The notes beneath the pieces were generated by a model that did no database searches, had not been told where the DNA came from, and was given only the letters and a program-made list of their open reading frames with translations. From Eledone cirrhosa (lineage: Eukaryota): a stretch of 64,000 nucleotides of DNA. The stretch is from assembly GCA_964016885.1 (NCBI GenBank), contig OZ024743.1, forward strand, positions 357,988,001 through 358,052,000, read 5' to 3'. A program made the translations under genes and the position numbers. This document shows positions 1 through 64,000 of this stretch, one piece after another; position 1 is the first letter of the stretch, and each line of letters begins with the position of its first letter.

Positions 1-1
1 A

Positions 2-1369
2 ACGCACATCACCCGAGGCAAAAAATATGCCACCGTAGACGTACTTTTTGCCACACCCCAGGAGGCAAAGGCCCAATCAGTAGTGACCCTAAGGAGCGAG
101 GAAATGGTGTTGGTGCCCTCCTACTGTGGGCAAAAAATTGTGAGGGTCAAACTGACCCACGTCCCCCCCGGAATGACCCCTTCTTGGCTGGCCGCGTCTG
201 TCCTCGTCGGAATCGAGGACAAAACAACTGTACTGCAAGTACAGAAAAAAGTAAGAGAAGATTGGGTCGGCTCCTCCATTGAGATGCTAATCCAAACCAA
301 CCAGGAGTGCATCGAAGCTATCCCGGATGTGATAGACTTCGATAACGGCACTCAACTGCCCATAAGTGTTGAGGGCAAACGCCCGAAATGCTTTCGCTGT
401 GGATCGAAGACTCACCTCAGGGCCTTCTGCAACGAGAAGACCCTGAGAAAGGAGAAAACCCCCCTCCTTCCGAATCCGGCTCCACGGCTACCAGCAACAG
501 GACAAGCGGCAACCAGGAACGATAGGCCCGTGGCACCCATACCCACTCCACGGAAATCAAAAACAGCAGCAGCAGTGGAAATACTAACAACAACAACAGC
601 AATACCAAATGCAGCTGCAACAGAGACTCCAGTGCAAACATCACCAACAACAACAAGTGAAAGAGTGGAGTTGGTACCCCTCCCCGACCTCACAGAATCA
701 GACATGGAGTGTGAGGTGGGAGAGAGATGGCAAAAGGTCGTAAGAAGGCACAAACGCAGAAGCAGCGCATCGTCGCCTTTGAAAAGTGAGGAAAGAAATG
801 AGAAAAGGGTAAAGTCTACTGCAAAGAGACCCACAGCAGCAACACCACCAACACCATCACCACCCACACCAGCACCACCATCACCACCGGCGACAACCCC
901 ACCGCCAACAACACCTTCAACACCACCACCACAAGCACCAACATCGCAAACACAACAACAAAACACACACACCCAGCAACAACGACAAGAAAATAGCAGA
1001 ACCACACCCCACCCCCAGAAAAACAAATGCACGGCAATAAACACACACAACAAGAAACTAATGACTTACATAATTGAACACACAGACATTTCACAACAGG
1101 ACTACATAATACCAGCACCAATCAAAACGCCAACTAACATAAGACTGCTAAAAATAGCACAGAAACAATACACAAACATTAAAACGAAATTCCCCAACGC
1201 AGTTGGTGATTTCAGGGACCTAGGAGGAACCATTAATCGAAGAGTATATTCAGACATTCTCTTAGAAGAGCCGACGACCAGCCGAAGGGACGATTCAACG
1301 GTCCCTTCACCAGACGATCAAGTGAAAAGGGATGTAAAAACCATCCCTCCTCTACCAAAAATACGGTAA
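2..1369 (+). CDS. ORF1 nucleic-acid-binding (gag-like) protein, 5'-partial
   Basis: Open from the window start in the frame of the 83..1369 ORF. Contains the CX2CX4HX4C knuckle CFRCGSKTHLRAFC. Confidence 0.9.
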   Translation, partial: THITRGKKYATVDVLFATPQEAKAQSVVTLRSEEMVLVPSYCGQKIVRVKLTHVPPGMTPSWLAASVLVGIEDKTTVLQVQKKVREDWVGSSIEMLIQTNQECIEAIPDVIDFDNGTQLPISVEGKRPKCFRCGSKTHLRAFCNEKTLRKEKTPLLPNPAPRLPATGQAATRNDRPVAPIPTPRKSKTAAAVEILTTTTAIPNAAATETPVQTSPTTTSERVELVPLPDLTESDMECEVGERWQKVVRRHKRRSSASSPLKSEERNEKRVKSTAKRPTAATPPTPSPPTPAPPSPPATTPPPTTPSTPPPQAPTSQTQQQNTHTQQQRQENSRTTPHPQKNKCTAINTHNKKLMTYIIEHTDISQQDYIIPAPIKTPTNIRLLKIAQKQYTNIKTKFPNAVGDFRDLGGTINRRVYSDILLEEPTTSRRDDSTVPSPDDQVKRDVKTIPPLPKIR

Positions 1370-1404
1370 GTGGTCTTTCCCATCTTTTCCACTCTATTTT
1401 AAAC

Positions 1405-4400
1405 ATGACCTCACTCAGAATAGGCAGCATAAATGCGCGTGGCTTGGGGTCGTCATGGAAGCAGGGTCACCTGCTCAACGACCTCAGGTCACTAAACATA
1501 GATGTAGTGGCCATCAGCGAGACCAGAATCTCCGAAGCACGGGCCTTCGCACCGATCTTCGGCGGCTACGATGTGTACGCATCTCCCAGCCGTCCTGGAT
1601 CGGGTGGAGGAGTTGCTGTGCTTTTTCGGAGAGGTTTGGATCTCGCCATACGGGCCATCTTCCTGGACCCAGAGGGTAAGCTGGTGGTGCTGGACGTGAC
1701 CAGCGGAGACGGGCAAGCTTTCAGGCTAGTGGCCGTCTATGCCCCGACAGGAGCAGGGCGGCCTGATTTCTTCCGGCGTCTGGAGACCTTTCTTGGAACG
1801 TCGCGCTCTTTAGTGTTAGTGGGCGACTGGAACGGGATCTTAGATGCACGCTGGGACTGTGTGGGATTAGCGGATAGGGGTGGAGGGTGCAAGAGCCTCA
1901 CCAACCTGCTCAGGCGTTTTGAACTGTCTGACAGGTACCGATTGGATTTCCCGAATGTGCCAATGTGGACTTGGACAAACCGCATAGGGTCATCCAGATC
2001 ATATCTAGATAGAGTATTTTGTAGGGAAATAGATAGGTCTAGCATAGGCTGTCCACAATTCAAGATAGTCAGCTACACGGACCACAAATTCGTGATCTGT
2101 GTGCTTGACTTAGATAGGCTTCATAGACGAGGACCCGGCTACTGGAAGCTAAACGCGTCCTTACCAGCGCGCAAGGCCTACAGAGACCGGATTAGCGAAC
2201 TAGTTAAGCGGGCGTTGACGGGGGCCATCGTCAACAACAAGTGGTGGTTTGCTCTGAAAAGAGCGATTAGAATAGAATCGATTAGGTTTAGTAAGGCTTT
2301 AGCAATAGAGAAAAATAGAGCAGAGGGAGAACTAGTTAGAAAATTAGACGAGGCGCTTAGCAAAGGCATTGCGACCGACGTGCTTGCGGCGAAATTGGCC
2401 CTTGACCAATTCTTCAATGCAAAGCACGAAGGCTGCGTTGTCAGAGCTAGGGTGCGTGCTCTCAGACACGAGGGGACGAAAGCCGTTCAATGGGCCCGAG
2501 TGGCGGAGGCGCGTCGTGGCAACAAAGCCACGATCCGGTCTTTGGTGGACCACGACGGGCGCATGCTACTCGATCCCGGGCAAATGTGTGAAGCTTTTCA
2601 GCGACACTTCGCTCAGCTGTTCGGGGGCAGCGGGGGGCCGGGTAGAGGGATGGACTTTAGTGTCTACCTCGACGGGCTGCCGCGGCTCTCGGCCACTGAG
2701 GCGAGGTGTTGCGAAAAGCCGATAACAGCCGCTGAAGTACGGGAGGCAATGACTGGCTGCACAAGGGGTAAATCGCCTGGTTTGGATGGTCTGCCCTATG
2801 AACTTTACGTACAGATGCCAGACTTGTTCGGAGGCCTCTTGGCGGACGTCTACTGCAACTGGCAACAGAACGGGAGAATTCCCAGTTCTGTGAGCCGAGG
2901 AGCGGTGGCACTGCTGAGAAAGGATCCGAACAAGGGGGATAACATAGACAATTTCCGGCCCATAACTCTGCTAAACACAGAGTTTAAGATTTTGGCCAAG
3001 GTGCTAGCAAAGAGGTTGGCGCTTGTCGTTGGTGGTCTGGTGGGAGAGGCGCAGACATGCGCCATTCCCGACAGATCCATCCACGACAACCTCCACCTCA
3101 TGCGATACATCGTAGAGAGGGTAGCTAGGGAACCTGGCACGGGTGGGTCCTTGATCAATTTAGATCAGTCGAAAGCTTTCGATAGGGTCGACCATCGTTA
3201 CCTAGCGGCAGTCCTGAGGGCGGCTGGCTTTGGGCCCGTCTTCAGAGGCTGGATCGCTGCCATGCACAGCGACATCTGCTCTGTGGTGAGAGTGAACGGT
3301 CACCTGTCGGAACCGTTCAACATCATGCGCTCGGTCCGCCAAGGATGTCCCCTCTCGTCCCTCTTGTACGTATTGACTCTCGAGCCATTACTGCACAAAC
3401 TGGAGACGTTGAGGGGAGTCCCGCGCGAACTAGGATGCGGAAGATCCGTGTCAGCATATGCGGACGATGTCACCGTAGTGGTGTCGAACGCCAAACACAT
3501 CGAGGCGATCGGCACTACACTAAGAGAATACGAAGCGGTGACAGGAGCAATGATCAACCAGGAAAAGTCAGTGGGCCTGCAGCTCGGCACCTGGAGAGGC
3601 AGGTCCATGCCGTCCAACAGCGTCGTCGGGCGCTGGACGGACGGACCGGTTAAATTGCTAGGGGTCTGGTTCGGTCCGGACCTCCAGACGGACAAAAACT
3701 GGGACGAGGTGACGAGCAGGGTGGCTTCTCTCACCCAGAAATGGGCGGAGAGGAAGCTATCCCTGAAAGGTCGAGCGGAGGTGGCTAACGCGTACATCGC
3801 GTCTGTCATCTGCTACCGCCTAACCGTCGTACCTTGTCCTAAGCCTCGCCTGACTGCGCTGGAGCGTTTGCTCTTTCGCTTTTTGTGGAAGGGACGTGCT
3901 CCGATGGTCAGGCGGTCCATCTGTTGTCAACACCCGCTACGTGGAGGGCTGGGCATGCCGTGGCTGATGATGCGCAGGCACGCGCTCAGGCTACGACATC
4001 TCCACCTCTTCCTCGACGGTGATCAGGTGTGGTCGCCGTTTGCTAGACGCGTTTTTCCCCAGCTCGTTTCCTTGACGGAGCTGCAGTCCTGGGTCAAGCG
4101 AAGACCGAGAGGGAGCGCCTGGAGACTGGAATGTCTTCAGGCGCTCACAGCCCTCGACCAATCGGGCAATGTGATCGGTGGAAACTCCACCTCGGCGTTC
4201 TATAGAGGATTAGTGGAGGGGAAGAGCGACGACGTACTTGGGGAAACTCTAGGCGTCGACGAAAATCAACTAGCCAATCTCTTCGGAAGAACTTTCGGGC
4301 CGGGGCCTATGGACAACTTCCAGAAATCTCTGGCCTGGCAGTGCTACCGAGGAGCCTTGCCAGTTCGGGATAAACTCTACAGGCATGGAGGTGCCGTCAG

Positions 4401-4824
4401 CCGGGCATGTCCGAGATGCGCGCAGGGCGACGAAACCGTCCTGCACGCACTCGTCCAGTGTCCGAAAATTGCTGACTTGTGGGTTTATGTCGAACACCTG
4501 CTGTCGCGTTTAGGACGGATCCAGCTATCATCTGAGTCTATCGTGAGGATTGCCCCGCCCTCCTCCTTTAGCCGGGAAGGGCAGGCAGTTTTTATCTGTC
4601 TGGTGGCCATGGCGAAAGAGATAGTATGGTGGACACGTTTGAAAGGGCTGAAGACGAGCACTTACCTCTTCGGTGATGCTCTGATTGACTTTTTCAAATT
4701 TCATTTGAAAAGGAAAATCAGAGTAGAAAAGGAAGTGCTCTCTTCCCAGCATTTTGTTGAAAGATGGGTGAGAGAAGCAAGAATGGCCCGAGTGAATGGG
4801 CCGACTCTGAGTATATATCTGTAA
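1405..4824 (+). CDS. ORF2: APE endonuclease + reverse transcriptase + C-terminal CCHC zinc finger (1139 aa)
   Basis: APE motifs INARG, ISETR, VYAP, GDWN, YLDRVF, YTDH. Linker GPGYWKLN. RT motifs KSPGLDG, NFRPITLLN, LDQSKAFDRVDH, VRQGCPLS, YADD. GGLGMP motif and the CX2CX8HX4C finger CPRCAQGDETVLHALVQC. Confidence 0.98.
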   Translation: MTSLRIGSINARGLGSSWKQGHLLNDLRSLNIDVVAISETRISEARAFAPIFGGYDVYASPSRPGSGGGVAVLFRRGLDLAIRAIFLDPEGKLVVLDVTSGDGQAFRLVAVYAPTGAGRPDFFRRLETFLGTSRSLVLVGDWNGILDARWDCVGLADRGGGCKSLTNLLRRFELSDRYRLDFPNVPMWTWTNRIGSSRSYLDRVFCREIDRSSIGCPQFKIVSYTDHKFVICVLDLDRLHRRGPGYWKLNASLPARKAYRDRISELVKRALTGAIVNNKWWFALKRAIRIESIRFSKALAIEKNRAEGELVRKLDEALSKGIATDVLAAKLALDQFFNAKHEGCVVRARVRALRHEGTKAVQWARVAEARRGNKATIRSLVDHDGRMLLDPGQMCEAFQRHFAQLFGGSGGPGRGMDFSVYLDGLPRLSATEARCCEKPITAAEVREAMTGCTRGKSPGLDGLPYELYVQMPDLFGGLLADVYCNWQQNGRIPSSVSRGAVALLRKDPNKGDNIDNFRPITLLNTEFKILAKVLAKRLALVVGGLVGEAQTCAIPDRSIHDNLHLMRYIVERVAREPGTGGSLINLDQSKAFDRVDHRYLAAVLRAAGFGPVFRGWIAAMHSDICSVVRVNGHLSEPFNIMRSVRQGCPLSSLLYVLTLEPLLHKLETLRGVPRELGCGRSVSAYADDVTVVVSNAKHIEAIGTTLREYEAVTGAMINQEKSVGLQLGTWRGRSMPSNSVVGRWTDGPVKLLGVWFGPDLQTDKNWDEVTSRVASLTQKWAERKLSLKGRAEVANAYIASVICYRLTVVPCPKPRLTALERLLFRFLWKGRAPMVRRSICCQHPLRGGLGMPWLMMRRHALRLRHLHLFLDGDQVWSPFARRVFPQLVSLTELQSWVKRRPRGSAWRLECLQALTALDQSGNVIGGNSTSAFYRGLVEGKSDDVLGETLGVDENQLANLFGRTFGPGPMDNFQKSLAWQCYRGALPVRDKLYRHGGAVSRACPRCAQGDETVLHALVQCPKIADLWVYVEHLLSRLGRIQLSSESIVRIAPPSSFSREGQAVFICLVAMAKEIVWWTRLKGLKTSTYLFGDALIDFFKFHLKRKIRVEKEVLSSQHFVERWVREARMARVNGPTLSIYL

Positions 4825-5073
4825 ACTAAAGGTGGAAAACTGGGAGAGGGCACTTGCCTTGGTGGTCAGGGTCATTGTGGCTTTTTACTGGGCTTTCTCC
4901 ACAAATGTCCCTCCGAAGTCTCCCCCCTATTGGGGAATTTTTCATTGTTATTTTCATTGTTATTTTTGTTACATCCTCTGTTTTTGTTTTTTACACGCAG
5001 AAATGCCCATTTGTACCGTCCTGCATTGTCCTGCACTGTCCTTAATGTCTACTTTATGTAAACCCTTGTGGTT

Positions 5074-5079
5074 AATAAA
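5074..5079 (+). terminator. AATAAA polyadenylation-signal-like hexamer (present in every copy)
   Basis: GGTTAATAAAGAAATC immediately before each ATT tract; a typical position for an L1/Tx1 3' end. Confidence 0.65.
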
Positions 5080-5085
5080 GAAATC

Positions 5086-5118
5086 ATTATTATTATTGTT
5101 ATTATTATTATTATTATT
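5086..5118 (+). repeat. Junction 1 tract (ATT)4 GTT (ATT)6
   Basis: Read directly; starts 6 nt after AATAAA. Confidence 0.95.
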
Positions 5119-5331
5119 GAATGCCATGGTTGACGGAGGCTCGGCTCTGTAAGGTATAGTAATTTTTAACCGTTAAAACAATTGTAAATTGTTTAAAACT
5201 TGAACCAAATTGTTGATAAAGACACCCTCCTCCTCGTGAGAGGGGTCTTTCTGTCCGTTATTTGGCCCTTCGGGGTTAAATAACCAGTTATTGGGGTTTT
5301 GTACCCAAAATTTCATTTTAAACAAAAAAAC
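5119..5331 (+). promoter_or_regulatory. 5' UTR/leader with serial stem-loops (putative internal promoter and/or structured RNA); repeated in every copy
   Basis: Hairpins at 5176-5194, 5218-5250 (GTGA loop), 5257-5284 (C-TTCG-G loop) and 5291-5308. Short uORF at 5126-5152. Confidence 0.6.
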
Positions 5332-7428
5332 ATGGCTACCAAAAAGAAATTTCATACGTCACTCCCACTCATTCCGTCTTCTTCTTCCTCAATCATCACT
5401 ACAGCAGAGAGAAGATTGTCTCTCTCCCTCCCTTCTTTAAATGTGTCTCTCTCCCTCCCTTCTCTTTCGCAAGCGACGAAAGAAAAGAAAAGTCTCGTGC
5501 AAAGCGTGCAAGGTTTCTCCACGACGACGACGACAGCGACGAAACAGGTGCGCGGGAAATACGAAAACCCAGTTCATTCGTCTGACGTCAGGAATAATAG
5601 CAGTAGCAGCCGTAATAACAACAGCAACAGTGACAATGAAAACAACAGTAGCAGCCGCAACAGCATCACCAGCAGCATAAACAACAACAGCATTAGCAGC
5701 AGCAACACCAACAACAACCACAGCAACAGCGGCGGAGGCAGTAGTCGTAGTACCTGCAGCAACAACAAAAGTACCAGCAGCTCTGACGACAACAACAACA
5801 GCAGAGAAAAACCAATCTCATTTGCAGGTATTGCGAAAAACCTGGAAACAATCCTCATAACAAATGAGGAATTAGAGGAAGCGAAGAAGATGGTGACAAA
5901 GAACGGACACCGAGCAATCTGCAAGGCAGCGAAAAATTTTTTCGAAACCCAAGAGCACTGTACGGTCACGTACCGTACAGTAAGTACAAAATCCCGTAGG
6001 GTGGAAAGAGCCACAGAGGCCCAAATACAAAAAGCCTTGGGGTCTGTGTGGCAGAGGAAAACGCACATCACCCGAGGCAAAAAATACGCCACCGTAGACG
6101 TACTTTTTGCCACACCCCAGGAGGCAAAGGCCCAATCAGTAGTGACCCTAAGGAGCGAGGAAATGGTGTTGGTGCCCTCCTACTGCGGGCAAAAAATTGT
6201 GAGGGTCAAACTGACCCACGTCCCCCCCGGAATGACCCCTTCTTGGCTGGCCGCGTCTGTCCTCGTCGGAATCGAGGACAAAACAACTGTACTGCAAGTA
6301 CAGAAAAAAGTAAGAGAAGATTGGGTCGGCTCCTCCATTGAGATGCTAATCCAAACCAACCAGGAGTGCATCGAAGCTATCCCGGATGTGATAGACTTCG
6401 ATAACGGCACTCAACTGCCCATAAGTGTTGAGGGCAAACGCCCGAAATGCTTTCGCTGTGGATCGAAGACTCACCTCAGGGCCTTCTGCAACGAGAAGAC
6501 CCTGAGAAAGGAGAAAACCCCCCTCCTCCCGAATCCGGTTCCACGGCTACCAGCAACAGGACAAGCGGCAACCAGGAACGATAGGTCCGTGGCACCCATA
6601 CCCACTCCACGGAAATCAAAGACAGCAGCAGCAGTGGAAATATTAACAACAACAACAGCAATACCAAATGCAGCTGCAACAGAGACTCCAGTGCAAACAT
6701 CACCAACAACAACAAGTGAAAGAGTGGAGCTGGTACCCCTCCCCGACCTTACAGAATCAGACATGGAGTGTGAGGTGGGAGAGGGATGGCAAAAGGTCTC
6801 AAGAAGGCACAAACGCAGAAGCAGCGCATCGTCGCCTTTGAAAAGGGAGGAAAGAAATGAGAAAAGGGTAAAGTCTACTGCAAAGAGACCCACAGCAGCA
6901 ACACCACCAACACCATCACCACCCACACCAGCACCACCATCACCACCGGCGACAACCCCACCGCCAACAACACCTTCAACACCACCACCACAAGCACCAA
7001 CATCGCAAACACAACAACAAAACACACACACCCAGCAACAACGACAAGAAAATAGCAGAACCACACCCCACCCCCAGAAAAACAAATGCACGGCAATAAA
7101 CACACACAACAAGAAACTAATGACTTACATAATTGAACACACAGACATTTCACAACAGGACTACATAATACCAGCACCAATCAAAACGCCAACTAACATA
7201 AGACTGCTAAAAATAGCACAGAAACAATACACAAACATTAAAACGAAATTCCCCAACGCAGTTGGTGATTTCAGGGACCTAGGAGGAACCATTAATCGAA
7301 GAGTATATTCAGACATTCTCTTAGAAGAGCCGACGACCAGCCGAAGGGACGATTCAACGGTCCCTTCACCAGACGATCAAGTGAAAAGGGATGTAAAAAC
7401 CATCCCTCCTCTACCAAAAATACGGTAA
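5332..7428 (+). CDS. ORF1 (698 aa from AAACATGG; the ORF track starts it at upstream TTG 5299)
   Basis: First in-frame ATG in good context. Ser/Asn-rich N-terminus, RRM-like core, CCHC knuckle at 6448-6489, basic NLS-like KVSRRHKRR, Pro/Thr-rich tract. Confidence 0.9.
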   Translation: MATKKKFHTSLPLIPSSSSSIITTAERRLSLSLPSLNVSLSLPSLSQATKEKKSLVQSVQGFSTTTTTATKQVRGKYENPVHSSDVRNNSSSSRNNNSNSDNENNSSSRNSITSSINNNSISSSNTNNNHSNSGGGSSRSTCSNNKSTSSSDDNNNSREKPISFAGIAKNLETILITNEELEEAKKMVTKNGHRAICKAAKNFFETQEHCTVTYRTVSTKSRRVERATEAQIQKALGSVWQRKTHITRGKKYATVDVLFATPQEAKAQSVVTLRSEEMVLVPSYCGQKIVRVKLTHVPPGMTPSWLAASVLVGIEDKTTVLQVQKKVREDWVGSSIEMLIQTNQECIEAIPDVIDFDNGTQLPISVEGKRPKCFRCGSKTHLRAFCNEKTLRKEKTPLLPNPVPRLPATGQAATRNDRSVAPIPTPRKSKTAAAVEILTTTTAIPNAAATETPVQTSPTTTSERVELVPLPDLTESDMECEVGEGWQKVSRRHKRRSSASSPLKREERNEKRVKSTAKRPTAATPPTPSPPTPAPPSPPATTPPPTTPSTPPPQAPTSQTQQQNTHTQQQRQENSRTTPHPQKNKCTAINTHNKKLMTYIIEHTDISQQDYIIPAPIKTPTNIRLLKIAQKQYTNIKTKFPNAVGDFRDLGGTINRRVYSDILLEEPTTSRRDDSTVPSPDDQVKRDVKTIPPLPKIR

Positions 7429-7463
7429 GTGGTCTTTCCCATCTTTTCCACTCTATTTTAAAC

Positions 7464-10400
7464 ATGACCTCACTCAGAATAGGCAGCATAAATGCGCGTG
7501 GCTTGGGGTCGTCATGGAAGCAGGGTCACCTGCTCAACGACCTCAGGTCACTAAACATAGATGTAGTGGCCATCAGCGAGACCAGAATCTCCGAAGCACG
7601 GGCCTTCGCACCGATCTTCGGCGGCTACGATGTGTACGCATCTCCCAGCCGTCCTGGATCGGGTGGAGGAGTTGCTGTGCTTTTTCGGAGAGGTTTGGAT
7701 CTCGCCATACGGGCCATCTTCCTGGACCCAGAGGGTAAGCTGGTGGTGCTGGACGTGACCAGCGGAGACGGGCAAGCTTTCAGGCTAGTGGCCGTCTATG
7801 CCCCGACAGGAGCAGGGCGGCCTGATTTCTTCCGGCGTCTGGAGACCTTTCTTGGAACGTCGCGCTCTTTAGTGTTAGTGGGCGACTGGAACGGGATCTT
7901 AGATGCACGCTGGGACTGTGTGGGATTAGCGGATAGGGGTGGAGGGTGCAAGAGCCTCACCAACCTGCTCAGGCGTTTTGAACTGTCTGACAGGTACCGA
8001 TTGGATTTCCCGAATGTGCCAATGTGGACTTGGACAAACCGCATAGGGTCATCCAGATCATATCTAGATAGAGTATTTTGTAGGGAAATAGATAGGTCTA
8101 GCATAGGCTGTCCACAATTCAAGATAGTCAGCTACACGGACCACAAATTCGTGATCTGTGTGCTTGACTTAGATAGGCTTCATAGACGAGGACCCGGCTA
8201 CTGGAAGCTAAACGCGTCCTTACCAGCGCGCAAGGCCTACAGAGACCGGATTAGCGAACTAGTTAAGCGGGCGTTGACGGGGGCCATCGTCAACAACAAG
8301 TGGTGGTTTGCTCTGAAAAGAGCGATTAGAATAGAATCGATTAGGTTTAGTAAGGCTTTAGCAATAGAGAAAAATAGAGCAGAGGGAGAACTAGTTAGAA
8401 AATTAGACGAGGCGCTTAGCAAAGGCATTGCGACCGACGTGCTTGCGGCGAAATTGGCCCTTGACCAATTCTTCAATGCAAAGCACGAAGGCTGCGTTGT
8501 CAGAGCTAGGGTGCGTGCTCTCAGACACGAGGGGACGAAAGCCGTTCAATGGGCCCGAGTGGCGGAGGCGCGTCGTGGCAACAAAGCCACGATCCGGTCT
8601 TTGGTGGACCACGACGGGCGCATGCTACTCGATCCCGGGCAAATGTGTGAAGCTTTTCAGCGACACTTCGCTCAGCTGTTCGGGGGCAGCGGGGGGCCGG
8701 GTAGAGGGATGGACTTTAGTGTCTACCTCGACGGACTGCCGCGGCTCTCGGCCACTGAGGCGAAGTGTTGCGAAAAGCCGATAACAGCCGCTGAAGTAAG
8801 GGAGGCAATGACTGGCTGCACAAGGGGTAAATCGCCTGGTTTGGATGGTCTGCCCTATGAACTTTACGTACAGATGCCAGACTTGTTCGGAGGCCTCTTG
8901 GCGGACGTCTACTGCAACTGGCAACAGAACGGGAGAATTCCCAGTTCTGTGAGCCGAGGAGCGGTGGCACTGCTGAGAAAGGATCCGAACAAGGGGGATA
9001 ACATAGACAATTTCCGGCCCATAACTCTGCTAAACACAGAGTTTAAGATTTTGGCCAAGGTGCTAGCAAAGAGGTTGGCGCTTGTCGTTGGTGGTCTGGT
9101 GGGAGAGGCGCAGACATGCGCCATTCCCGACAGATCCATCCACGACAACCTCCACCTCATGCGATACATCGTAGAGAGGGTAGCTAGGGAACCTGGCACG
9201 GGTGGGTCCTTGATCAATTTAGATCAGTCGAAAGCTTTCGATAGGGTCGACCATCGTTACCTAGCGGCAGTCCTGAGGGCGGCTGGCTTTGGGCCCGTCT
9301 TCAGAGGCTGGATCGCTGCCATGCACAGCGACATCTGCTCTGTGGTGAGAGTGAACGGTCACCTGTCGGAACCGTTCAACATCATGCGCTCGGTCCGCCA
9401 AGGATGTCCCCTCTCGTCCCTCTTGTACGTATTGACTCTCGAGCCATTACTGCACAAACTGGAGACGTTGAGGGGAGTCCCGCGCGAACTAGGATGCGGA
9501 AGATCCGTGTCAGCATATGCGGACGATGTCACCGTAGTGGTGTCGAACGCCAAACACATCGAGGCGATCGGCACTACACTAAGAGAATACGAAGCGGTGA
9601 CAGGAGCAATGATCAACCAGGAAAAGTCAGTGGGCCTGCAGCTCGGCACCTGGAGAGGCAGGTCCATGCCGTCCAACAGCGTCGTCGGGCGCTGGACGGA
9701 CGGACCGGTTAAATTGCTAGGGGTCTGGTTCGGTCCGGACCTCCAGACGGACAAAAACTGGGACGAGGTGACGAGCAGGGTGGCTTCTCTCACCCAGAAA
9801 TGGGCGGAGAGGAAGCTATCCCTGAAAGGTCGAGCGGAGGTGGCTAACGCGTACATCGCGTCTGTCATCTGCTACCGCCTAACCGTCGTACCTTGTCCTA
9901 AGCCTCGCCTGACTGCGCTGGAGCGTTTGCTCTTTCGCTTTTTGTGGAAGGGACGTGCTCCGATGGTCAGGCGGTCCATCTGTTGTCAACACCCGCTACG
10001 TGGAGGGCTGGGCATGCCGTGGCTGATGATGCGCAGGCACGCGCTCAGGCTACGACATCTCCACCTCTTCCTCGACGGTGATCAGGTGTGGTCGCCGTTT
10101 GCTAGACGCGTTTTTCCCCAGCTCGTTTCCTTGACGGAGCTGCAGTCCTGGGTCAAGCGAAGACCGAGAGGGAGCGCCTGGAGACTGGAATGTCTTCAGG
10201 CGCTCACAGCCCTCGACCAATCGGGCAATGTGATCGGTGGAAACTCCACCTCGGCGTTCTATAGAGGATTAGTGGAGGGGAAGAGCGACGACGTACTTGG
10301 GGAAACTCTAGGCGTCGACGAAAATCAACTAGCCAATCTCTTCGGAAGAACCTTCGGGCCAGGGCCTATGGACAACTTCCAGAAATCTCTGGCCTGGCAG

Positions 10401-10883: not shown

Positions 10884-11146
10884 ACTAAAGGTGGAAAACT
10901 GGGAGAGGGCACTTGCCTTGGTGGTCAGGGTCATTGTGGCTTTTTACTGGGCTTTCTCCACAAATGTCCCTCCGAAGTCTCCCCCCTATTGGGGAATTTT
11001 TCATTGTTATTTTCATTGTTATTTTTGTTACATCCTCTATTTTTGTTTTTTTTACACGCAGAAATGCCCATTTGTACCGTCCTGCATTGTCCTGCACTGT
11101 CCTTAATGTCTACTTTATGTAAACCCTTGTGGTTAATAAAGAAATC

Positions 11147-53304: not shown

Positions 53305-53567
53305 ACTAAAGGTGGAAAACTGGGAGAGGGCACTTGCCTTGGTGGTCAGGGTCATTGTGGCTTTTTACTGGGCTTTCTCCACAAATGTCCCTCCGAAGTC
53401 TCCCCCCTATTGGGGAATTTTTTCATTGTTATTTTCATTGTTATTTTTGTTACATCCTCTGTTTTTGTTTTTTTACACGCAGAAATGCCCATTTGTACCG
53501 TCCTGCATTGTCCTGCACTGTCCTTAATGTCTACTTTATGTAAACCCTTGTGGTTAATAAAGAAATC

Positions 53568-53591
53568 ATTATTATTATTATTATTATTATT
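53568..53591 (+). repeat. Junction 9 tract (ATT)8
   Basis: Read directly. Confidence 0.95.
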
Positions 53592-53804
53592 GAATGCCAT
53601 GGTTGACGGAGGCTCGGCTCTGTAAGGTATAGTAATTTTTAACCGTTAAAACAATTGTAAATTGTTTAAAACTTGAACCAAATTGTTGATAAAGACACCC
53701 TCCTCCTCGTGAGAGGGGTCTTTCTGTCCGTTATTTGGCCCTTCGGGGTTAAATAGCCAGTTATTGGGGTTTTGTACCCAAAATTTCATTTTAAACAAAA
53801 AAAC

Positions 53805-55904: not shown

Positions 55905-55939
55905 GTGGTCTTTCCCATCTTTTCCACTCTATTTTAAAC

Positions 55940-58900
55940 ATGACCTCACTCAGAATAGGCAGCATAAATGCGCGTGGCTTGGGGTCGTCATGGAAGCAGG
56001 GTCACCTGCTCAACGACCTCAGGTCACTAAACATAGATGTAGTGGCCATCAGCGAGACCAGAATCTCCGAAGCACGGGCCTTCGCACCGATCTTCGGCGG
56101 CTACGATGTGTACGCATCTCCCAGCCGTCCTGGATCCGGTGGAGGAGTTGCTGTGCTTTTTCGGAGAGGTTTGGATCTCGCCATACGGGCCATCTTCCTG
56201 GACCCAGAGGGTAAGCTGGTGGTGCTGGACGTGACCAGCGGAGACGGGCAAGCTTTCAGGCTAGTGGCCGTCTATGCCCCGACAGGAGCAGGGCGGCCTG
56301 ATTTCTTCCGGCGTCTGGAGACCTTTCTTGGAACGTCCCGCTCTTTAGTGTTAGTGGGCGACTGGAACGGGATCTTAGATGCACGCTGGGACTGTGTGGG
56401 ATTAGCGGATAGGGGTGGAGGGTGCAAGAGCCTCACCAACCTGCTCAGGCGTTTTGAACTGTCTGACAGGTACCGATTGGATTTCCCGAATGTGCCAATG
56501 TGGACTTGGACAAACCGCATAGGGTCATCCAGATCATATCTAGATAGAGTATTTTGTAGGGAAATAGATAGGTCTAGCATAGGCTGTCCACAATTCAAGA
56601 TAGTCAGCTACACGGACCACAAATTCGTGACCTGTGTGCTTGACTTAGATAGGCTTCATAGACGAGGACCCGGCTACTGGAAGCTAAACGCGTCCTTACC
56701 AGCGCGCAAGGCCTACAGAGACCGGATTAGCGAACTAGTTAAGCGGGCGTTGACGGGGGCCATCGTCAACAACAAGTGGTGGTTTGCTCTGAAAAGAGCG
56801 ATTAGAATAGAATCGATTAGGTTTAGTAAGGCTTTAGCAATAGAGAAAAATAGAGCAGAGGGAGAACTAGTTAGAAAATTAGACGAGGCGCTTAGCAAAG
56901 GCATTGCGACCGACGTGCTTGCGGCGAAATTGGCCCTTGACCAATTCTTCAATGCAAAGCACGAAGGCTGCGTTGTCAGAGCTAGGGTGCGTGCTCTCAG
57001 ACACGAGGGGACGAAAGCCGTTCAATGGGCCCGAGTGGCGGAGGCGCGTCGTGGCAACAAAGCCACGATCCGGTCTTTGGTGGACCACGACGGGCGCATG
57101 CTACTCGATCCCGGGCAAATGTGTGAAGCTTTTCAGCGACACTTCGCTCAGCTGTTCGGGGGCAGCGGGGGGCCGGGTAGAGGGATGGACTTTAGTGTCT
57201 ACCTCGACGGACTGCCGCGGCTCTCGGCCACTGAGGCGAAGTGTTGCGAAAAGCCGATAACAGCCGCTGAAGTACGGGAGGCAATGACTGGCTGCACAAG
57301 GGGTAAATCGCCTGGTTTGGATGGTCTGCCCTATGAACTTTACGTACAGATGCCAGACTTGTTCGGAGGCCTCTTGGCGGACGTCTACTGCAACTGGCAA
57401 CAGAACGGGAGAATTCCCAGTTCTGTGAGCCGAGGAGCGGTGGCACTGCTGAGAAAGGATCCGAACAAGGGGGATAACATAGACAATTTCCGGCCCATAA
57501 CTCTGCTAAACACAGAGTTTAAGATTTTGGCCAAGGTGCTAGCAAAGAGGTTGGCGCTTGTCGTTGGTGGTCTGGTGGGAGAGGCGCAGACATGCGCCAT
57601 TCCCGACAGATCCATCCACGACAACCTCCACCTCATGCGATACATCGTAGAGAGGGTAGCTAGGGAACCTGGCACGGGTGGGTCCTTGATCAATTTAGAT
57701 CAGTCGAAAGCTTTCGATAGGGTCGACCATCGTTACCTAGCGGCAGTCCTGAGGGCGGCTGGCTTTGGGCCCGTCTTCAGAGGCTGGATCGCTGCCATGC
57801 ACAGCGACATCTGCTCTGTGGTGAGAGTGAACGGTCACCTGTCGGAACCGTTCAACATCATGCGCTCGGTCCGCCAAGGATGTCCCCTCTCGTCCCTCTT
57901 GTACGTATTGACTCTCGAGCCATTACTGCACAAACTGGAGACGTTGAGGGGAGTCCCGCGCGAACTAGGATGCGGAAGATCCGTGTCAGCATATGCGGAC
58001 GATGTCACTGTAGTGGTGTCGAACGCCAAACACATCGAGGCGATCGGCACTACACTAAGAGAATACGAAGCGGTGACAGGAGCAATGATCAACCAGGAAA
58101 AGTCAGTGGGCCTGCAGCTCGGCACCTGGAGAGGCAGGTCCATGCCGTCCAACAGCGTCGTCGGGCGCTGGACGGACGGACCGGTTAAATTGCTAGGGGT
58201 CTGGTTCGGTCCGGACCTCCAGACGGACAAAAACTGGGACGAGGTGACGAGCAGGGTGGCTTCTCTCACCCAGAAATGGGCGGAGAGGAAGCTATCCCTG
58301 AAAGGTCGAGCGGAGGTGGCTAACGCGTACATCGCGTCTGTCATCTGCTACCGCCTAACCGTCGTACCTTGTCCTAAGCCTCGCCTGACTGCGCTGGAGC
58401 GTTTGCTCTTTCGCTTTTTGTGGAAGGGACGTGCTCCGATGGTCAGGCGGTCCATCTGTTGTCAACACCCGCTACGTGGAGGGCTGGGCATGCCGTGGCT
58501 GATGATGCGCAGGCACGCGCTCAGGCTACGACATCTCCACCTCTTCCTCGACGGTGATCAGGTGTGGTCGCCGTTTGCTAGACGCGTTTTTCCCCAGCTC
58601 GTTTCCTTGACGGAGCTGCAGTCCTGGGTCAAGCGAAGACCGAGAGGGAGCGCCTGGAGACTGGAATGTCTTCAGGCGCTCACAGCCCTCGACCAATCGG
58701 GCAATGTGATCGGTGGAAACTCCACCTCGGCGTTCTATAGAGGATTAGTGGAGGGGAAGAGCGACGACGTACTTGGGGAAACTCTAGGCGTCGACGAAAA
58801 TCAACTAGCCAATCTCTTCGGAAGAACCTTCGGGCCAGGGCCTATGGACAACTTCCAGAAATCTCTGGCCTGGCAGTGCTACCGAGGAGCCTTGCCAGTT

Positions 58901-59359
58901 CGGGATAAACTCTACAGGCATGGAGGTGCCGTCAGCCGGGCATGTCCGAGATGCGCGCAGGGCGACGAAACCGTCCTGCACGCACTCGTCCAGTGTCCGA
59001 AAATTGCTGACTTGTGGGTTTATGTCGAACACCTGCTGTCGCGTTTAGGACGGATCCAGCTATCATCTGAGTCTATCGTGAGGATTGCCCCGCCCTCCTC
59101 CTTTAGCCGGGAAGGGCAGGCAGTTTTTATCTGTCTGGTGGCCATGGCGAAAGAGATAGTATGGTGGACACGTTTGAAAGGGCTGAAGACGAGCACTTAC
59201 CTCTTCGGTGATGCTCTGATTGACTTTTTCAAATTTCATTTGAAAAGGAAAATCAGAGTAGAGAAGGAAGTGCTCTCTTCCCAGCATTTTGTTGAAAGAT
59301 GGGTGAGAGAAGCAAGAATGGCCCGAGTGAATGGGCCGACTCTGAGTATATATCTGTAA
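55940..59359 (+). CDS. ORF2 APE-RT-zinc finger (1139 aa)
   Basis: Motifs as in copy 1. Confidence 0.98.
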   Translation: MTSLRIGSINARGLGSSWKQGHLLNDLRSLNIDVVAISETRISEARAFAPIFGGYDVYASPSRPGSGGGVAVLFRRGLDLAIRAIFLDPEGKLVVLDVTSGDGQAFRLVAVYAPTGAGRPDFFRRLETFLGTSRSLVLVGDWNGILDARWDCVGLADRGGGCKSLTNLLRRFELSDRYRLDFPNVPMWTWTNRIGSSRSYLDRVFCREIDRSSIGCPQFKIVSYTDHKFVTCVLDLDRLHRRGPGYWKLNASLPARKAYRDRISELVKRALTGAIVNNKWWFALKRAIRIESIRFSKALAIEKNRAEGELVRKLDEALSKGIATDVLAAKLALDQFFNAKHEGCVVRARVRALRHEGTKAVQWARVAEARRGNKATIRSLVDHDGRMLLDPGQMCEAFQRHFAQLFGGSGGPGRGMDFSVYLDGLPRLSATEAKCCEKPITAAEVREAMTGCTRGKSPGLDGLPYELYVQMPDLFGGLLADVYCNWQQNGRIPSSVSRGAVALLRKDPNKGDNIDNFRPITLLNTEFKILAKVLAKRLALVVGGLVGEAQTCAIPDRSIHDNLHLMRYIVERVAREPGTGGSLINLDQSKAFDRVDHRYLAAVLRAAGFGPVFRGWIAAMHSDICSVVRVNGHLSEPFNIMRSVRQGCPLSSLLYVLTLEPLLHKLETLRGVPRELGCGRSVSAYADDVTVVVSNAKHIEAIGTTLREYEAVTGAMINQEKSVGLQLGTWRGRSMPSNSVVGRWTDGPVKLLGVWFGPDLQTDKNWDEVTSRVASLTQKWAERKLSLKGRAEVANAYIASVICYRLTVVPCPKPRLTALERLLFRFLWKGRAPMVRRSICCQHPLRGGLGMPWLMMRRHALRLRHLHLFLDGDQVWSPFARRVFPQLVSLTELQSWVKRRPRGSAWRLECLQALTALDQSGNVIGGNSTSAFYRGLVEGKSDDVLGETLGVDENQLANLFGRTFGPGPMDNFQKSLAWQCYRGALPVRDKLYRHGGAVSRACPRCAQGDETVLHALVQCPKIADLWVYVEHLLSRLGRIQLSSESIVRIAPPSSFSREGQAVFICLVAMAKEIVWWTRLKGLKTSTYLFGDALIDFFKFHLKRKIRVEKEVLSSQHFVERWVREARMARVNGPTLSIYL

Positions 59360-59622
59360 ACTAAAGGTGGAAAACTGGGAGAGGGCACTTGCCTTGGTGG
59401 TCAGGGTCATTGTGGCTTTTTACTGGGCTTTCTCCACAAATGTCCCTCCGAAGTCTCCCCCCTATTGGGGAATTTTTCATTGTTATTTTCATTGTTATTT
59501 TTGTTACATCCTCTATTTTTGTTTTTTTTACACGCAGAAATGCCCATTTGTACCGTCCTGCATTGTCCTGCACTGTCCTTAATGTCTACTTTATGTAAAC
59601 CCTTGTGGTTAATAAAGAAATC

Positions 59623-59661
59623 ATTATTATTATTATTATTGTTATTATTATTATTATTATT
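59623..59661 (+). repeat. Junction 10 tract (ATT)6 GTT (ATT)6
   Basis: Read directly. Confidence 0.95.
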
Positions 59662-59874
59662 GAATGCCATGGTTGACGGAGGCTCGGCTCTGTAAGGTAT
59701 AGTAATTTTTAACCGTTAAAACAATTGTAAATTGTTTAAAACTTGAACCAAATTGTTGATAAAGACACCCTCCTCCTCGTGAGAGGGGTCTTTCTGTCCG
59801 TTATTTGGCCCTTCGGGGTTAAATAACCAGTTATTGGGGTTTTGTACCCAAAATTTCATTTTAAACAAAAAAAC

Positions 59875-61971
59875 ATGGCTACCAAAAAGAAATTTCATAC
59901 GTCACTCCCACTCATTCCGTCTTCTTCTTCCTCAATCATCACTACAGCAGAGAGAAGATTGTCTCTCTCCCTCCCTTCTTTAAATGTGTCTCTCTCCCTC
60001 CCTTCTCTTTCGCAAGCGACGAAAGAAAAGAAAAGTCTCGTGCAAAGCGTGCAAGGTTTCTCCACGACGACGACGACAGCGACGAAACAGGTGCGCGGGA
60101 AATACGAAAACCCAGTTCATTCGTCTGACGTCAGGAATAATAGCAGTAGCAGCCGTAATAACAACAGCAACAGTGACAATGAAAACAACAGTAGCAGCCG
60201 CAACAGCATCACCAGCAGCATAAACAACAACAGCATTAGCAGCAGCAACACCAACAACAACCACAGCAACAGCGGCGGAGGCAGTAGTCGTAGTACCTGC
60301 AGCAACAACAAAAGTACCAGCAGCTCTGACGACAACAACAACAGCAGAGAAAAACCAATCTCATTTGCAGGTATTGCGAAAAACCTGGAAACAATCCTCA
60401 TAACAAATGAGGAATTAGAGGAAGCGAAGAAGATGGTGACAAAGAACGGACACCGAGCAATCTGCAAGGCAGCGAAAAATTTTTTCGAAACCCAAGAGCA
60501 CTGTACGGTCACGTACCGTACAGTAAGTACAAAATCCCGTAGGGTGGAAAGAGCCACAGAGGCCCAAATACAAAAAGCCTTGGGGTCTGTGTGGCAGAGG
60601 AAAACGCACATCACCCGAGGCAAAAAATACGCCACCGTAGACGTACTTTTTGCCACACCCCAGGAGGCAAAGGCCCAATCAGTAGTGACCCTAAGGAGCG
60701 AGGAAATGGTGTTGGTGCCCTCCTACTGCGGGCAAAAAATTGTGAGGGTCAAACTGACCCACGTCCCCCCCGGAATGACCCCTTCTTGGCTGGCCGCGTC
60801 TGTCCTCGTCGGAATCGAGGACAAAACAACTGTACTGCAAGTACAGAAAAAAGTAAGAGAAGATTGGGTCGGCTCCTCCATTGAGATGCTAATCCAAACC
60901 AACCAGGAGTGCATCGAAGCTATCCCGGATGTGATAGACTTCGATAACGGCACTCAACTGCCCATAAGTGTTGAGGGCAAACGCCCGAAATGCTTTCGCT
61001 GTGGATCGAAGACTCACCTCAGGGCCTTCTGCAACGAGAAGACCCTGAGAAAGGAGAAAACCCCCCTCCTCCCGAATCCGGTTCCACGGCTACCAGCAAC
61101 AGGACAAGCGGCAACCAGGAACGATAGGTCCGTGGCACCCATACCCACTCCACGGAAATCAAAGACAGCAGCAGCAGTGGAAATATTAACAACAACAACA
61201 GCAATACCAAATGCAGCTGCAACAGAGACTCCAGTGCAAACATCACCAACAACAACAAGTGAAAGAGTGGAGCTGGTACCCCTCCCCGACCTTACAGAAT
61301 CAGACATGGAGTGTGAGGTGGGAGAGGGATGGCAAAAGGTCTCAAGAAGGCACAAACGCAGAAGCAGCGCATCGTCGCCTTTGAAAAGGGAGGAAAGAAA
61401 TGAGAAAAGGGTAAAGTCTACTGCAAAGAGACCCACAGCAGCAACACCACCAACACCATCACCACCCACACCAGCACCACCATCACCACCGGCGACAACC
61501 CCACCGCCAACAACACCTTCAACACCACCACCACAAGCACCAACATCGCAAACACAACAACAAAACACACACACCCAGCAACAACGACAAGAAAATAGCA
61601 GAACCACACCCCACCCCCAGAAAAACAAATGCACGGCAATAAACACACACAACAAGAAACTAATGACTTACATAATTGAACACACAGACATTTCACAACA
61701 GGACTACATAATACCAGCACCAATCAAAACGCCAACTAACATAAGACTGCTAAAAATAGCACAGAAACAATACACAAACATTAAAACGAAATTCCCCAAC
61801 GCAGTTGGTGATTTCAGGGACCTAGGAGGAACCATTAATCGAAGAGTATATTCAGACATTCTCTTAGAAGAGCCGACGACCAGCCGAAGGGACGATTCAA
61901 CGGTCCCTTCACCAGACGATCAAGTGAAAAGGGATGTAAAAACCATCCCTCCTCTACCAAAAATACGGTAA
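59875..61971 (+). CDS. ORF1 (698 aa)
   Basis: Same protein as copy 2 ORF1. Confidence 0.9.
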   Translation: MATKKKFHTSLPLIPSSSSSIITTAERRLSLSLPSLNVSLSLPSLSQATKEKKSLVQSVQGFSTTTTTATKQVRGKYENPVHSSDVRNNSSSSRNNNSNSDNENNSSSRNSITSSINNNSISSSNTNNNHSNSGGGSSRSTCSNNKSTSSSDDNNNSREKPISFAGIAKNLETILITNEELEEAKKMVTKNGHRAICKAAKNFFETQEHCTVTYRTVSTKSRRVERATEAQIQKALGSVWQRKTHITRGKKYATVDVLFATPQEAKAQSVVTLRSEEMVLVPSYCGQKIVRVKLTHVPPGMTPSWLAASVLVGIEDKTTVLQVQKKVREDWVGSSIEMLIQTNQECIEAIPDVIDFDNGTQLPISVEGKRPKCFRCGSKTHLRAFCNEKTLRKEKTPLLPNPVPRLPATGQAATRNDRSVAPIPTPRKSKTAAAVEILTTTTAIPNAAATETPVQTSPTTTSERVELVPLPDLTESDMECEVGEGWQKVSRRHKRRSSASSPLKREERNEKRVKSTAKRPTAATPPTPSPPTPAPPSPPATTPPPTTPSTPPPQAPTSQTQQQNTHTQQQRQENSRTTPHPQKNKCTAINTHNKKLMTYIIEHTDISQQDYIIPAPIKTPTNIRLLKIAQKQYTNIKTKFPNAVGDFRDLGGTINRRVYSDILLEEPTTSRRDDSTVPSPDDQVKRDVKTIPPLPKIR

Positions 61972-62006
61972 GTGGTCTTTCCCATCTTTTCCACTCTATT
62001 TTAAAC

Positions 62007-64000
62007 ATGACCTCACTCAGAATAGGCAGCATAAATGCGCGTGGCTTGGGGTCGTCATGGAAGCAGGGTCACCTGCTCAACGACCTCAGGTCACTAAACA
62101 TAGATGTAGTGGCCATCAGCGAGACCAGAATCTCCGAAGCACGGGCCTTCGCACCGATCTTCGGCGGCTACGATGTGTACGCATCTCCCAGCCGTCCTGG
62201 ATCGGGTGGAGGAGTTGCTGTGCTTTTTCGGAGAGGTTTGGATCTCGCCATACGGGCCATCTTCCTGGACCCAGAGGGTAAGCTGGTGGTGCTGGACGTG
62301 ACCAGCGGAGACGGGCAAGCTTTCAGGCTAGTGGCCGTCTATGCCCCGACAGGAGCAGGGCGGCCTGATTTCTTCCGGCGTCTGGAGACCTTTCTTGGAA
62401 CGTCGCGCTCTTTAGTGTTAGTGGGCGACTGGAACGGGATCTTAGATGCACGCTGGGACTGTGTGGGATTAGCGGATAGGGGTGGAGGGTGCAAGAGCCT
62501 CACCAACCTGCTCAGGCGTTTTGAACTGTCTGACAGGTACCGATTGGATTTCCCGAATGTGCCAATGTGGACTTGGACAAACCGCATAGGGTCATCCAGA
62601 TCATATCTAGATAGAGTATTTTGTAGGGAAATAGATAGGTCTAGCATAGGCTGTCCACAATTCAAGATAGTCAGCTACACGGACCACAAATTCGTGATCT
62701 GTGTGCTTGACTTAGATAGGCTTCATAGACGAGGACCCGGCTACTGGAAGCTAAACGCGTCCTTACCAGCGCGCAAGGCCTACAGAGACCGGATTAGCGA
62801 ACTAGTTAAGCGGGCGTTGACGGGGGCCATCGTCAACAACAAGTGGTGGTTTGCTCTGAAAAGAGCGATTAGAATAGAATCGATTAGGTTTAGTAAGGCT
62901 TTAGCAATAGAGAAAAATAGAGCAGAGGGAGAACTAGTTAGAAAATTAGACGAGGCGCTTAGCAAAGGCATTGCGACCGACGTGCTTGCGGCGAAATTGG
63001 CCCTTGACCAATTCTTCAATGCAAAGCACGAAGGCTGCGTTGTCAGAGCTAGGGTGCGTGCTCTCAGACACGAGGGGACGAAAGCCGTTCAATGGGCCCG
63101 AGTGGCGGAGGCGCGTCGTGGCAACAAAGCCACGATCCGGTCTTTGGTGGACCACGACGGGCGCATGCTACTCGATCCCGGGCAAATGTGTGAAGCTTTT
63201 CAGCGACACTTCGCTCAGCTGTTCGGGGGCAGCGGGGGGCCGGGTAGAGGGATGGACTTTAGTGTCTACCTCGACGGACTGCCGCGGCTCTCGGCCACTG
63301 AGGCGAAGTGTTGCGAAAAGCCGATAACAGCCGCTGAAGTAAGGGAGGCAATGACTGGCTGCACAAGGGGTAAATCGCCTGGTTTGGATGGTCTGCCCTA
63401 TGAACTTTACGTACAGATGCCAGACTTGTTCGGAGGCCTCTTGGCGGACGTCTACTGCAACTGGCAACAGAACGGGAGAATTCCCAGTTCTGTGAGCCGA
63501 GGAGCGGTGGCACTGCTGAGAAAGGATCCGAACAAGGGGGATAACATAGACAATTTCCGGCCCATAACTCTGCTAAACACAGAGTTTAAGATTTTGGCCA
63601 AGGTGCTAGCAAAGAGGTTGGCGCTTGTCGTTGGTGGTCTGGTGGGAGAGGCGCAGACATGCGCCATTCCCGACAGATCCATCCACGACAACCTCCACCT
63701 CATGCGATACATCGTAGAGAGGGTAGCTAGGGAACCTGGCACGGGTGGGTCCTTGATCAATTTAGATCAGTCGAAAGCTTTCGATAGGGTCGACCATCGT
63801 TACCTAGCGGCAGTCCTGAGGGCGGCTGGCTTTGGGCCCGTCTTCAGAGGCTGGATCGCTGCCATGCACAGCGACATCTGCTCTGTGGTGAGAGTGAACG
63901 GTCACCTGTCGGAACCGTTCAACATCATGCGCTCGGTCCGCCAAGGATGTCCCCTCTCGTCCCTCTTGTACGTATTGACTCTCGAGCCATTACTGCACAA
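62007..64000 (+). CDS. ORF2 APE-RT, 3'-partial
   Basis: ATG at 62007; open to the window end through the RT QGCPLS motif. Confidence 0.95.
   Translation, partial: MTSLRIGSINARGLGSSWKQGHLLNDLRSLNIDVVAISETRISEARAFAPIFGGYDVYASPSRPGSGGGVAVLFRRGLDLAIRAIFLDPEGKLVVLDVTSGDGQAFRLVAVYAPTGAGRPDFFRRLETFLGTSRSLVLVGDWNGILDARWDCVGLADRGGGCKSLTNLLRRFELSDRYRLDFPNVPMWTWTNRIGSSRSYLDRVFCREIDRSSIGCPQFKIVSYTDHKFVICVLDLDRLHRRGPGYWKLNASLPARKAYRDRISELVKRALTGAIVNNKWWFALKRAIRIESIRFSKALAIEKNRAEGELVRKLDEALSKGIATDVLAAKLALDQFFNAKHEGCVVRARVRALRHEGTKAVQWARVAEARRGNKATIRSLVDHDGRMLLDPGQMCEAFQRHFAQLFGGSGGPGRGMDFSVYLDGLPRLSATEAKCCEKPITAAEVREAMTGCTRGKSPGLDGLPYELYVQMPDLFGGLLADVYCNWQQNGRIPSSVSRGAVALLRKDPNKGDNIDNFRPITLLNTEFKILAKVLAKRLALVVGGLVGEAQTCAIPDRSIHDNLHLMRYIVERVAREPGTGGSLINLDQSKAFDRVDHRYLAAVLRAAGFGPVFRGWIAAMHSDICSVVRVNGHLSEPFNIMRSVRQGCPLSSLLYVLTLEPLLH

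Follow-up and report, generated by a model that had tools for sequence, protein, structure and literature searches.

Several retrotransposons of the Tx1 clade, which lack long terminal repeats (non-LTR elements), target microsatellites, among them Kibi at (TC)n, Koshi at (TTC)n and crocodilian families at (TTCC)n or (TTTC)n (PMC4494074). The young element considered here fills a 64,000-nucleotide stretch of the genome of Eledone cirrhosa (the window; assembly GCA_964016885.1, contig OZ024743.1, called C4 below, positions 357,988,001 to 358,052,000 of the forward strand). Like those families, it is of the apurinic/apyrimidinic endonuclease (APE) type, carries two open reading frames (ORF1 and ORF2) and has its copies in a simple repeat, but the repeat that it targets, (ATT)n, is its own tail, and the portion of the source available does not mention long pure arrays for Kibi, Koshi or the crocodilian elements (PMC4494074). 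Tandem transposable elements in Drosophila arise by double insertion, and the R1 array there spans 0.5-1.3 Mb (PMC5932611). As described in the accessible part of that study, they too are head-to-tail non-LTR copies with target sequence at their junctions, dimers being common and a few growing long; in most of them an intact tail abuts a 5'-truncated copy, and unequal exchange is held responsible for the expansion (PMC5932611). In the E. cirrhosa arrays, by contrast, units are full length, their bodies come from a genome-wide pool and their heads are private to the locus. The terms 'template switch', 'gene conversion' and 'microsatellite' are not found in the main text of PMC5932611. Same-orientation, head-to-tail non-LTR copies also make up the telomeric arrays of HeT-A/TART/TAHRE, SART/TRAS, GilM/GilT and Tx1-1_ACar, as far as the part of the source available describes them (PMC10088271), whereas the array on C4 is interstitial, lies in the opposite orientation relative to the near chromosome end and is free of telomeric repeats.

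We consider it probable, though far from certain, that the C4 array was mostly built by repeated retrotransposition into its own junctions, with the new complementary DNA (cDNA) being completed on the adjacent resident copy, as is likely in several comparable arrays too. A related event is known from human L1: Gilbert and colleagues reportedly described in 2005 L1/L1 chimeras in which nascent cDNA had recombined with a resident L1, with local duplication or deletion, as sporadic products in cultured human cells. In E. cirrhosa such events would recur in the germline, since a homologous copy is always immediately next to the target. Dong/R4 elements use the same triplet repeat, (TAA)n, but belong to a clade with a restriction-like endonuclease, whereas the present element has an APE. 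The literature covered, which did not extend to Repbase Reports or to most subscription papers, does not describe any (ATT)n Tx1 array of this kind, nor any arrays with private heads and shared bodies. Among cephalopod studies, the part of a paper on Octopus vulgaris repeats that was available names 13 L1-Tx1 families with recent activity and mentions no arrays (PMC13282606). What sets the present system apart is that the target is the tail repeat itself, that the arrays are many, interstitial and intact, and that bodies are exchanged genome-wide; tandem junctions and microsatellite preference were already known.

Self-BLAST resolves the whole window into one repeat of 6.05-6.08 kb with 99.4-99.6% identity. 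It holds nine complete and two partial units (parts of 11 copies), every one on the + strand, and its 10 junctions consist of 6-16 ATT triplets and nothing else, one GTT variant being present in 6 of the 10. The initial annotation had described at least 11 same-orientation copies joined by ATT tracts only, with intact reading frames, and this description stands: ORF1 is open in all 10 complete window copies (697-699 amino acids) and ORF2 is intact in 9 of 10 (1139 amino acids). The full array comprises 21 full-length units of 6.03 kb over about 127 kb (C4:357,932,481-358,059,793, or window -55,519 to +71,793), with ORF1 open in 21/21 and ORF2 intact in 20/21. The array is gap-free, with no N in the 264 kb examined around it. 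Its units lie 0-42 substitutions apart. Because unit haplotypes and junction lengths are distinct and just one of 210 pairs is identical (A11 and A20), duplication during assembly is unlikely, and on this sequence evidence the array is confirmed as real and as larger than the 64-kb window. A higher-order repeat was considered and rejected, since units A02, A11 and A20 recur every nine units and the remaining units do not.

Neighbouring units look like independent products. Among 35 adjacent pairs taken from loci other than the C4 array and a second long array on contig C11, none is identical, and the members of a pair lie 5-221 substitutions apart. Units 8 and 9 of the array at C1:441 differ at 80 positions. 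The small arrays are polyphyletic, and C11 units are interspersed among C4 units. Within the two long arrays, adjacent units are no closer to each other than random ones (C4 p=0.34, C11 p=0.69). The ORF2 variants found in the 34 units of C4 and C11 comprise 35 synonymous and 24 non-synonymous changes, with 28% synonymous expected, and 31 of these 59 variants are also found at other loci. With these counts, import from working donors fits better than mutation in place. One unit, A08 (C4:357,974,927; window -13,073), carries 12 A>G changes in nucleotides (nt) 34-207 and no other change there. An A>G cluster is the pattern left by adenosine-to-inosine editing fixed by reverse transcription, and that of A08 looks like ADAR-edited RNA fixed as DNA.

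The junctions carry the mark of the locus in which they lie. In 11 of 33 multi-copy loci, the ATT tract in front of the first head is interrupted in a way peculiar to that locus, and the interruption reappears at a junction, equally far from the head; most of the other multi-copy loci have pure tracts, which are uninformative for flank copying. All 12 junctions of the C11 array end in ATC(ATT)6 like its 5' flank, in four forms (nine junctions are suffixes of the flank and three are shortened), and all nine junctions at C1:441 end in GCT(ATT)6 like the flank there. The flank marker is found at the 3' end of neither of these two arrays. In the C4 array, GTT(ATT)6 occurs in 13 of 20 junctions, where the six ATT triplets are invariant and 4-9 ATT precede the marker (p=0.04). 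This marker must have arisen inside the array, because it is present at neither array end; that it might be part of the element itself was ruled out, 13 of its 21 genomic matches lying in this one array. Longer flank repeats also occur, of 200 nt at C1:118.95 and of about 850 nt without mismatch at C1:55.44. At C1:55.44 Mb, the roughly 850 nt of non-element DNA are repeated between full-length copies whose elements differ at 33-58 sites; at C1:76.07 Mb, about 850 nt of non-element DNA are likewise repeated between full-length copies, the comparison there covering the last 60 nt.

Sharing between neighbours is polar. In 11 of the 35 pairs, the two neighbours begin to differ only at or beyond nt 590 (up to nt 2,924), compared with 1.0% of 3,524 unrelated pairs, and no such excess is seen at the 3' end (5/35 neighbour pairs versus 10% of unrelated ones). 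Units 1 and 2 at C1:57.08 are identical over nt 1-592, where 41 changes separate either from the nearest C4 unit; past nt 592, the distance to C4 units is 10 changes for unit 1 and 76 for unit 2. Unit 2 in turn equals an old unit 3 over nt 1-1291. The array at C1:441 has blocks of units with the first 2 kb in common, and its oldest body is the 3'-most. The fixation index (Fst) between the C4 and C11 arrays amounts to 0.42 for the first 1.2 kb (p=0.0005) and falls to about 0 past 2.4 kb: array heads are private to their locus, and bodies are common across arrays. The 5' haplotype is linked to the preceding junction in C4 (p=0.013), and the upstream copy is the younger in five of six pairs that share a marker.

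The steps that would give such products are read back from the products themselves. The ORF2 endonuclease would nick an ATT tract, usually before a resident head, and the AUU tail of the RNA would prime reverse transcription, as in standard target-primed reverse transcription. The end of the cDNA would then meet homologous resident sequence and be joined or extended there, anywhere from the first ~200 nt to ~2.9 kb in. As a result, the flank marker and the 5' part of the resident would be duplicated, a full-length unit would form even from an incomplete cDNA, and one target more would be available; the product would read, in order, flank marker, resident 5' part, new body, tail, marker and resident. 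Ordinary full-length insertions (unit A08) and occasional copying at the DNA level (C11 units 3 and 9) would contribute as well. Since even a short cDNA would yield a full-length unit, this route would explain why arrays are entirely full length despite the many truncated copies of the family. No host chromosomal role is needed for the array.

A wider proposal is more tentative, and we hold it to be rather less probable than its opposite. With target, tail and 5' flank all being the same microsatellite, each resident copy may serve both as landing pad and as repair template, so that 5' truncation is escaped locally, many interstitial and all-intact arrays form with bodies exchanged across chromosomes and private promoters, and the arrays become the main source loci of the family. 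The system bears on two open questions, namely how a new copy of a long interspersed nuclear element (LINE) has its 5' end attached to the chromosome and by what route mobile elements come to form tandem arrays. Single events, including entry into a tract, the length of resident sequence copied and which copy is newer, are readable because dozens of junctions carry locus-private markers and neighbours are divergent. If completion on the resident copy is correct, arrays of transposable elements can grow by recombination coupled to retrotransposition and not only by unequal exchange, they can concentrate intact autonomous copies behind fixed local promoters, and active LINEs can form 100-kb blocks at any place (here a cluster of tRNA-Met genes) with no telomere or centromere role.

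The most serious competitor to completion on the resident copy is the route described for R1, in which double insertion gives a dimer that is then expanded and shuffled at the DNA level through unequal crossing-over and gene conversion, among them misaligned exchanges with ectopic copies or with an allele that holds a single copy. It is an established model, as set out in the accessible part of PMC5932611, the junctions of the present arrays do carry target-site sequence as double insertion predicts, and a junction marker private to an array is what it would leave. Copying at the DNA level has also left signs, namely the identical units A11 and A20, private shared single-nucleotide polymorphisms (SNPs) and C11 units 3 and 9, which are one base apart and have the same broken ORF2. 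These signs, together with several further observations, weigh against completion on the resident copy. In C11, the 3' end of a unit is associated with the junction after it (p=0.014, from a set of 16 tests without correction), the association of 5' haplotype with preceding junction seen in C4 is not seen in C11 (p=0.15), and in pure-ATT pairs that share a head the downstream copy is the younger in three of four, opposite to the marker pairs. The location within a tandem tRNA cluster could raise DNA recombination at the C4 array. A clean A>G cluster occurs in only one of 120 units, and its neighbour bias in A08 is weak (11/12 changes after A/T versus 46/62). The loci were picked from the top junction matches and from clusters at the start of C1, and so lean young, and the neighbour-pair test excluded five loci of two copies in which a unit is incomplete or split. 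An insertion followed by a misaligned crossover with a single-copy allele would give the same chimera, the two being inseparable in one assembly. Unequal exchange would be expected to make units locus-private over their whole length, and on this point the picture is mixed: heads are private and bodies are not, but some units are DNA-level copies. The absence of identical neighbours, the lack of neighbour similarity in C4 and C11, the restriction of between-array differentiation to the 5' end and the mostly synonymous variants found at other loci too all tell against this route, as do dimers whose first units have foreign bodies with no upstream donor (C5:121 and C1:57.08) and the contrast between flank-duplicated products at 11 loci and one clear upstream-insertion intermediate (C21:0.49). 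On this evidence the R1-type route is unlikely to have built most of the array, while being far from negligible.

Other explanations fare much worse. Insertion of whole concatemers in a single event, derived from multimeric read-through RNA or from rolling-circle copying, would suit full-length units that abut without spacer, and read-through past a single AATAAA is conceivable, but the junction markers are those of the recipient locus's own 5' flank and not of a donor, and neighbours differ and show age gradients (C1:57.08, C1:441); this account is largely refuted and very improbable. An array length produced by faulty assembly is no more credible: public contigs are too short to span units, but every unit shows a SNP haplotype and a junction length of its own, no gap is present, the array passes into the tRNA cluster at both ends, and there are independent arrays with other markers. 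Least probable of all is a dedicated telomeric or centromeric domain kept by the element in the manner of HeT-A/TART/TAHRE (HTT), which the initial annotation had put forward. A pure, intact, same-strand array is what such a domain would look like, a telomere-specific Tx1 family is recorded in the anole in the part of the source available (PMC10088271), and a distal position is seen for some of the other arrays (C1:441 of 442.9 Mb, C21:0.5 Mb, C11:50.0 of 53.9 Mb). However, between the C4 array and the end of its 378.8-Mb contig there are 20.8 Mb; the array is only 127 kb long, has ordinary flanks on both sides (a tRNA-Met cluster, not satellite) and no telomeric hexamer runs in 137 kb of flank, and other arrays are mid-arm (C2:110 of 416 Mb). 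Its tails point toward the nearer end, whereas those of Drosophila HTT arrays point to the centromere (PMC10088271, as far as available), and the family is dispersed rather than confined to chromosome ends. Position, orientation, flanks and family dispersal make this role very unlikely for the C4 array. No TTAGGG hexamer occurs in the last 10 kb of contigs C4 and C11, which therefore may stop short of the true ends, so that family copies there are possible. In its last 300 nt, contig C4 ends in a satellite of about 45 nt.

The array interrupts a tandem tRNA-Met cluster, with 34 genes in the 95 kb scanned upstream and 13 in the 32 kb scanned downstream, and the nearest intact tRNA-Met genes lie at distances of 1.5 kb and 1.9 kb. 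On the 5' side the array is flanked by a host (CTT)n-ATC-(ATT)8 tract; on the 3' side it closes with (ATT)13, after which come other repeats. The cluster (anticodon CAT; C4:357,861,000-358,091,000) lies on both sides of the array, contains at least 47 genes, is partly organised as a 1.54-kb repeat and flips orientation at about 358.076 Mb. The tRNA-Met gene examined is presumably of the initiator type, judged by the hallmarks of that class. Of the arrays found, that on C4 alone sits in a tRNA cluster; a tRNA-Ser gene lies about 450 nt upstream of the C1:441 array.

Across the genome, exact matches number 1,655 for the head and 3,638 for the tail, and the family is dispersed along C1 and other contigs. 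Single heads account for 67 of the first 100 on C1; the other 33 form 13 clusters of 2-5, where 0.1 pair would be expected by chance. Traced back from the first 46 consecutive tails on C1, 19 copies extend to the same head, 7 are of a sister type and 19 are truncated or rearranged, with one undetermined. Arrays other than that on C4 lie at C11:49.97 Mb (13 units), C1:441.1 Mb (nine units and a 5' stub), C2:110.3 Mb (six units), C8:8.3 Mb (at least six units) and C21:0.5 Mb (four units), and a further one at C1:114.8 was recovered with a junction pattern of five rather than six ATT. All units are full length in the C4 (21/21), C11 (13/13), C2 (6/6) and C21 (4/4) arrays. At the start of the C1:441 array (C1:441,143,085), a 2.1-kb 5' stub directly before a marker junction resembles an aborted event. 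The family is mostly dispersed, and the single segmental expansion that the initial annotation had named as its refuting case does not apply, there being arrays of 4-13 units on C1, C2, C8, C11 and C21 whose units are not local duplicates.

The suggestion in the same annotation that the element inserts into its own termini agrees with where the copies end up, target, tail and 5' flank all being (ATT)n. Of 99 comparable heads, 95 lie behind (ATT)3 or more, as do all 30 heads that were fetched, while the target-preference criterion for Tx1 elements is more than 20% of flanks in the part of PMC4494074 available. Family tails number 9,672, up to one fifth of the 44,770 long ATT tract ends counted (a lower bound), and 11 of 30 heads are located in such tails. 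A strong preference for own tails over other ATT tracts was therefore not upheld, the excess being modest. With tails making up to a fifth of long ATT tracts and 11/30 heads there, dimers need little beyond microsatellite targeting; runs of 9-21 units would seem to need more. A sister subfamily has ORF2 and tail in common with the element and a different 5' UTR (untranslated region) and ORF1, the switch lying near nt 2265 (for example at C4:357,921,425). Its head is also found behind ATT tracts, often directly after main-family tails, giving mixed tandems. An ATT-tailed repeat of about 230 nt, probably a short interspersed nuclear element, recurs beside the element at many loci (for instance from window +71,794 onward), and reverse-oriented ends of other LINEs recur there too. 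This suggests a community of elements that use and supply the same ATT tracts.

A unit consists of a 213-nt 5' UTR, which folds into several hairpins, ORF1 of about 698 amino acids, ORF2 of 1139 amino acids, a 3' UTR with AATAAA and an (ATT)n tail. In ORF2, Pfam recognises Exo_endo_phos, RVT_1 and zf-RVT only, with no RNase H; the motifs GDWN, TDHK, YADD and a C-terminal CX2CX8HX4C are present, and the best match among solved structures is human L1 ORF2p (E 3e-52, residues 5-854), with R2 at E 1e-21, which places ORF2 nearer to L1 than to the clades with a restriction-like endonuclease. ORF1 has a CCHC knuckle, CX2CX4HX4C, at residue 373 and no Pfam score, and its Atlas leads are zf-CCHC and ZCCHC3-like RNA-binding clusters (0.91-0.93). 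RNA-binding domains with a CCHC knuckle are the ORF1 type of the Tx1 clade. A search for protein homologues gave a weak, short match of 64% within a predicted protein of Octopus sinensis, and no named Tx1 references were among the homologues returned. Judged by its predicted proteins, the element is an L1-group non-LTR retrotransposon, and from its ORF1 type and target preference it likely belongs to the Tx1 clade. Of the Tx1/L1-type label that it had been given, the first half is probable, and the L1 half is borne out by domains, motifs and the L1 ORF2p match.

The window opens within unit A10, the tenth of 21, whose 3' part occupies positions 1..5118 (+) with ORF2 at 1405-4824. This unit ends in the junction (ATT)4 GTT (ATT)6 (5086..5118, +), where the tail of one unit is the target of the next and GTT(ATT)6 is the array-private marker. 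Unit A11 (5119..11170, +), like the eight that follow it, is full length; it has its 5' UTR at 5119-5331, ORF1 with the CCHC knuckle at 5332-7428, ORF2 with APE endonuclease, reverse transcriptase and C-terminal Cys-His motif at 7464-10883, and a 3' UTR with AATAAA before (ATT)8. On the same strand follow A12 (11171..17240; ORF1 11384-13483, ORF2 13519-16938), A13 (17241..23309; ORF1 17454-19553, ORF2 19589-23008), A14 (23310..29357; ORF1 23523-25616, ORF2 25652-29071), A15 (29358..35403; ORF1 29571-31667, ORF2 31703-35122), A16 (35404..41480; ORF1 35617-37716, ORF2 37752-41171) and A17 (41481..47543; ORF1 41694-43787, ORF2 43823-47242). Unit A18 (47544..53591, +) has an open ORF1 at 47757-49850 and an ORF2 frameshifted by a 1-base deletion near 50505. 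It is followed by A19 (53592..59661, +; ORF1 53805-55904, ORF2 55940-59359) and by the 5' part of A20 (59662..64000, +), with ORF1 at 59875-61971 and an ORF2 that starts at 62007 and is intact beyond the window. Unit A21 and the end of the array, at window +71,793, also lie beyond it. Unit A10 is a mosaic, with alleles of other subfamilies in its ORF1 region. Downstream of the array by 54 kb, a full-length copy stands alone on the opposite strand (C4:358,114,003-358,120,070); it is 1.3% diverged, has a broken ORF2 and has alleles in common with this region of A10.

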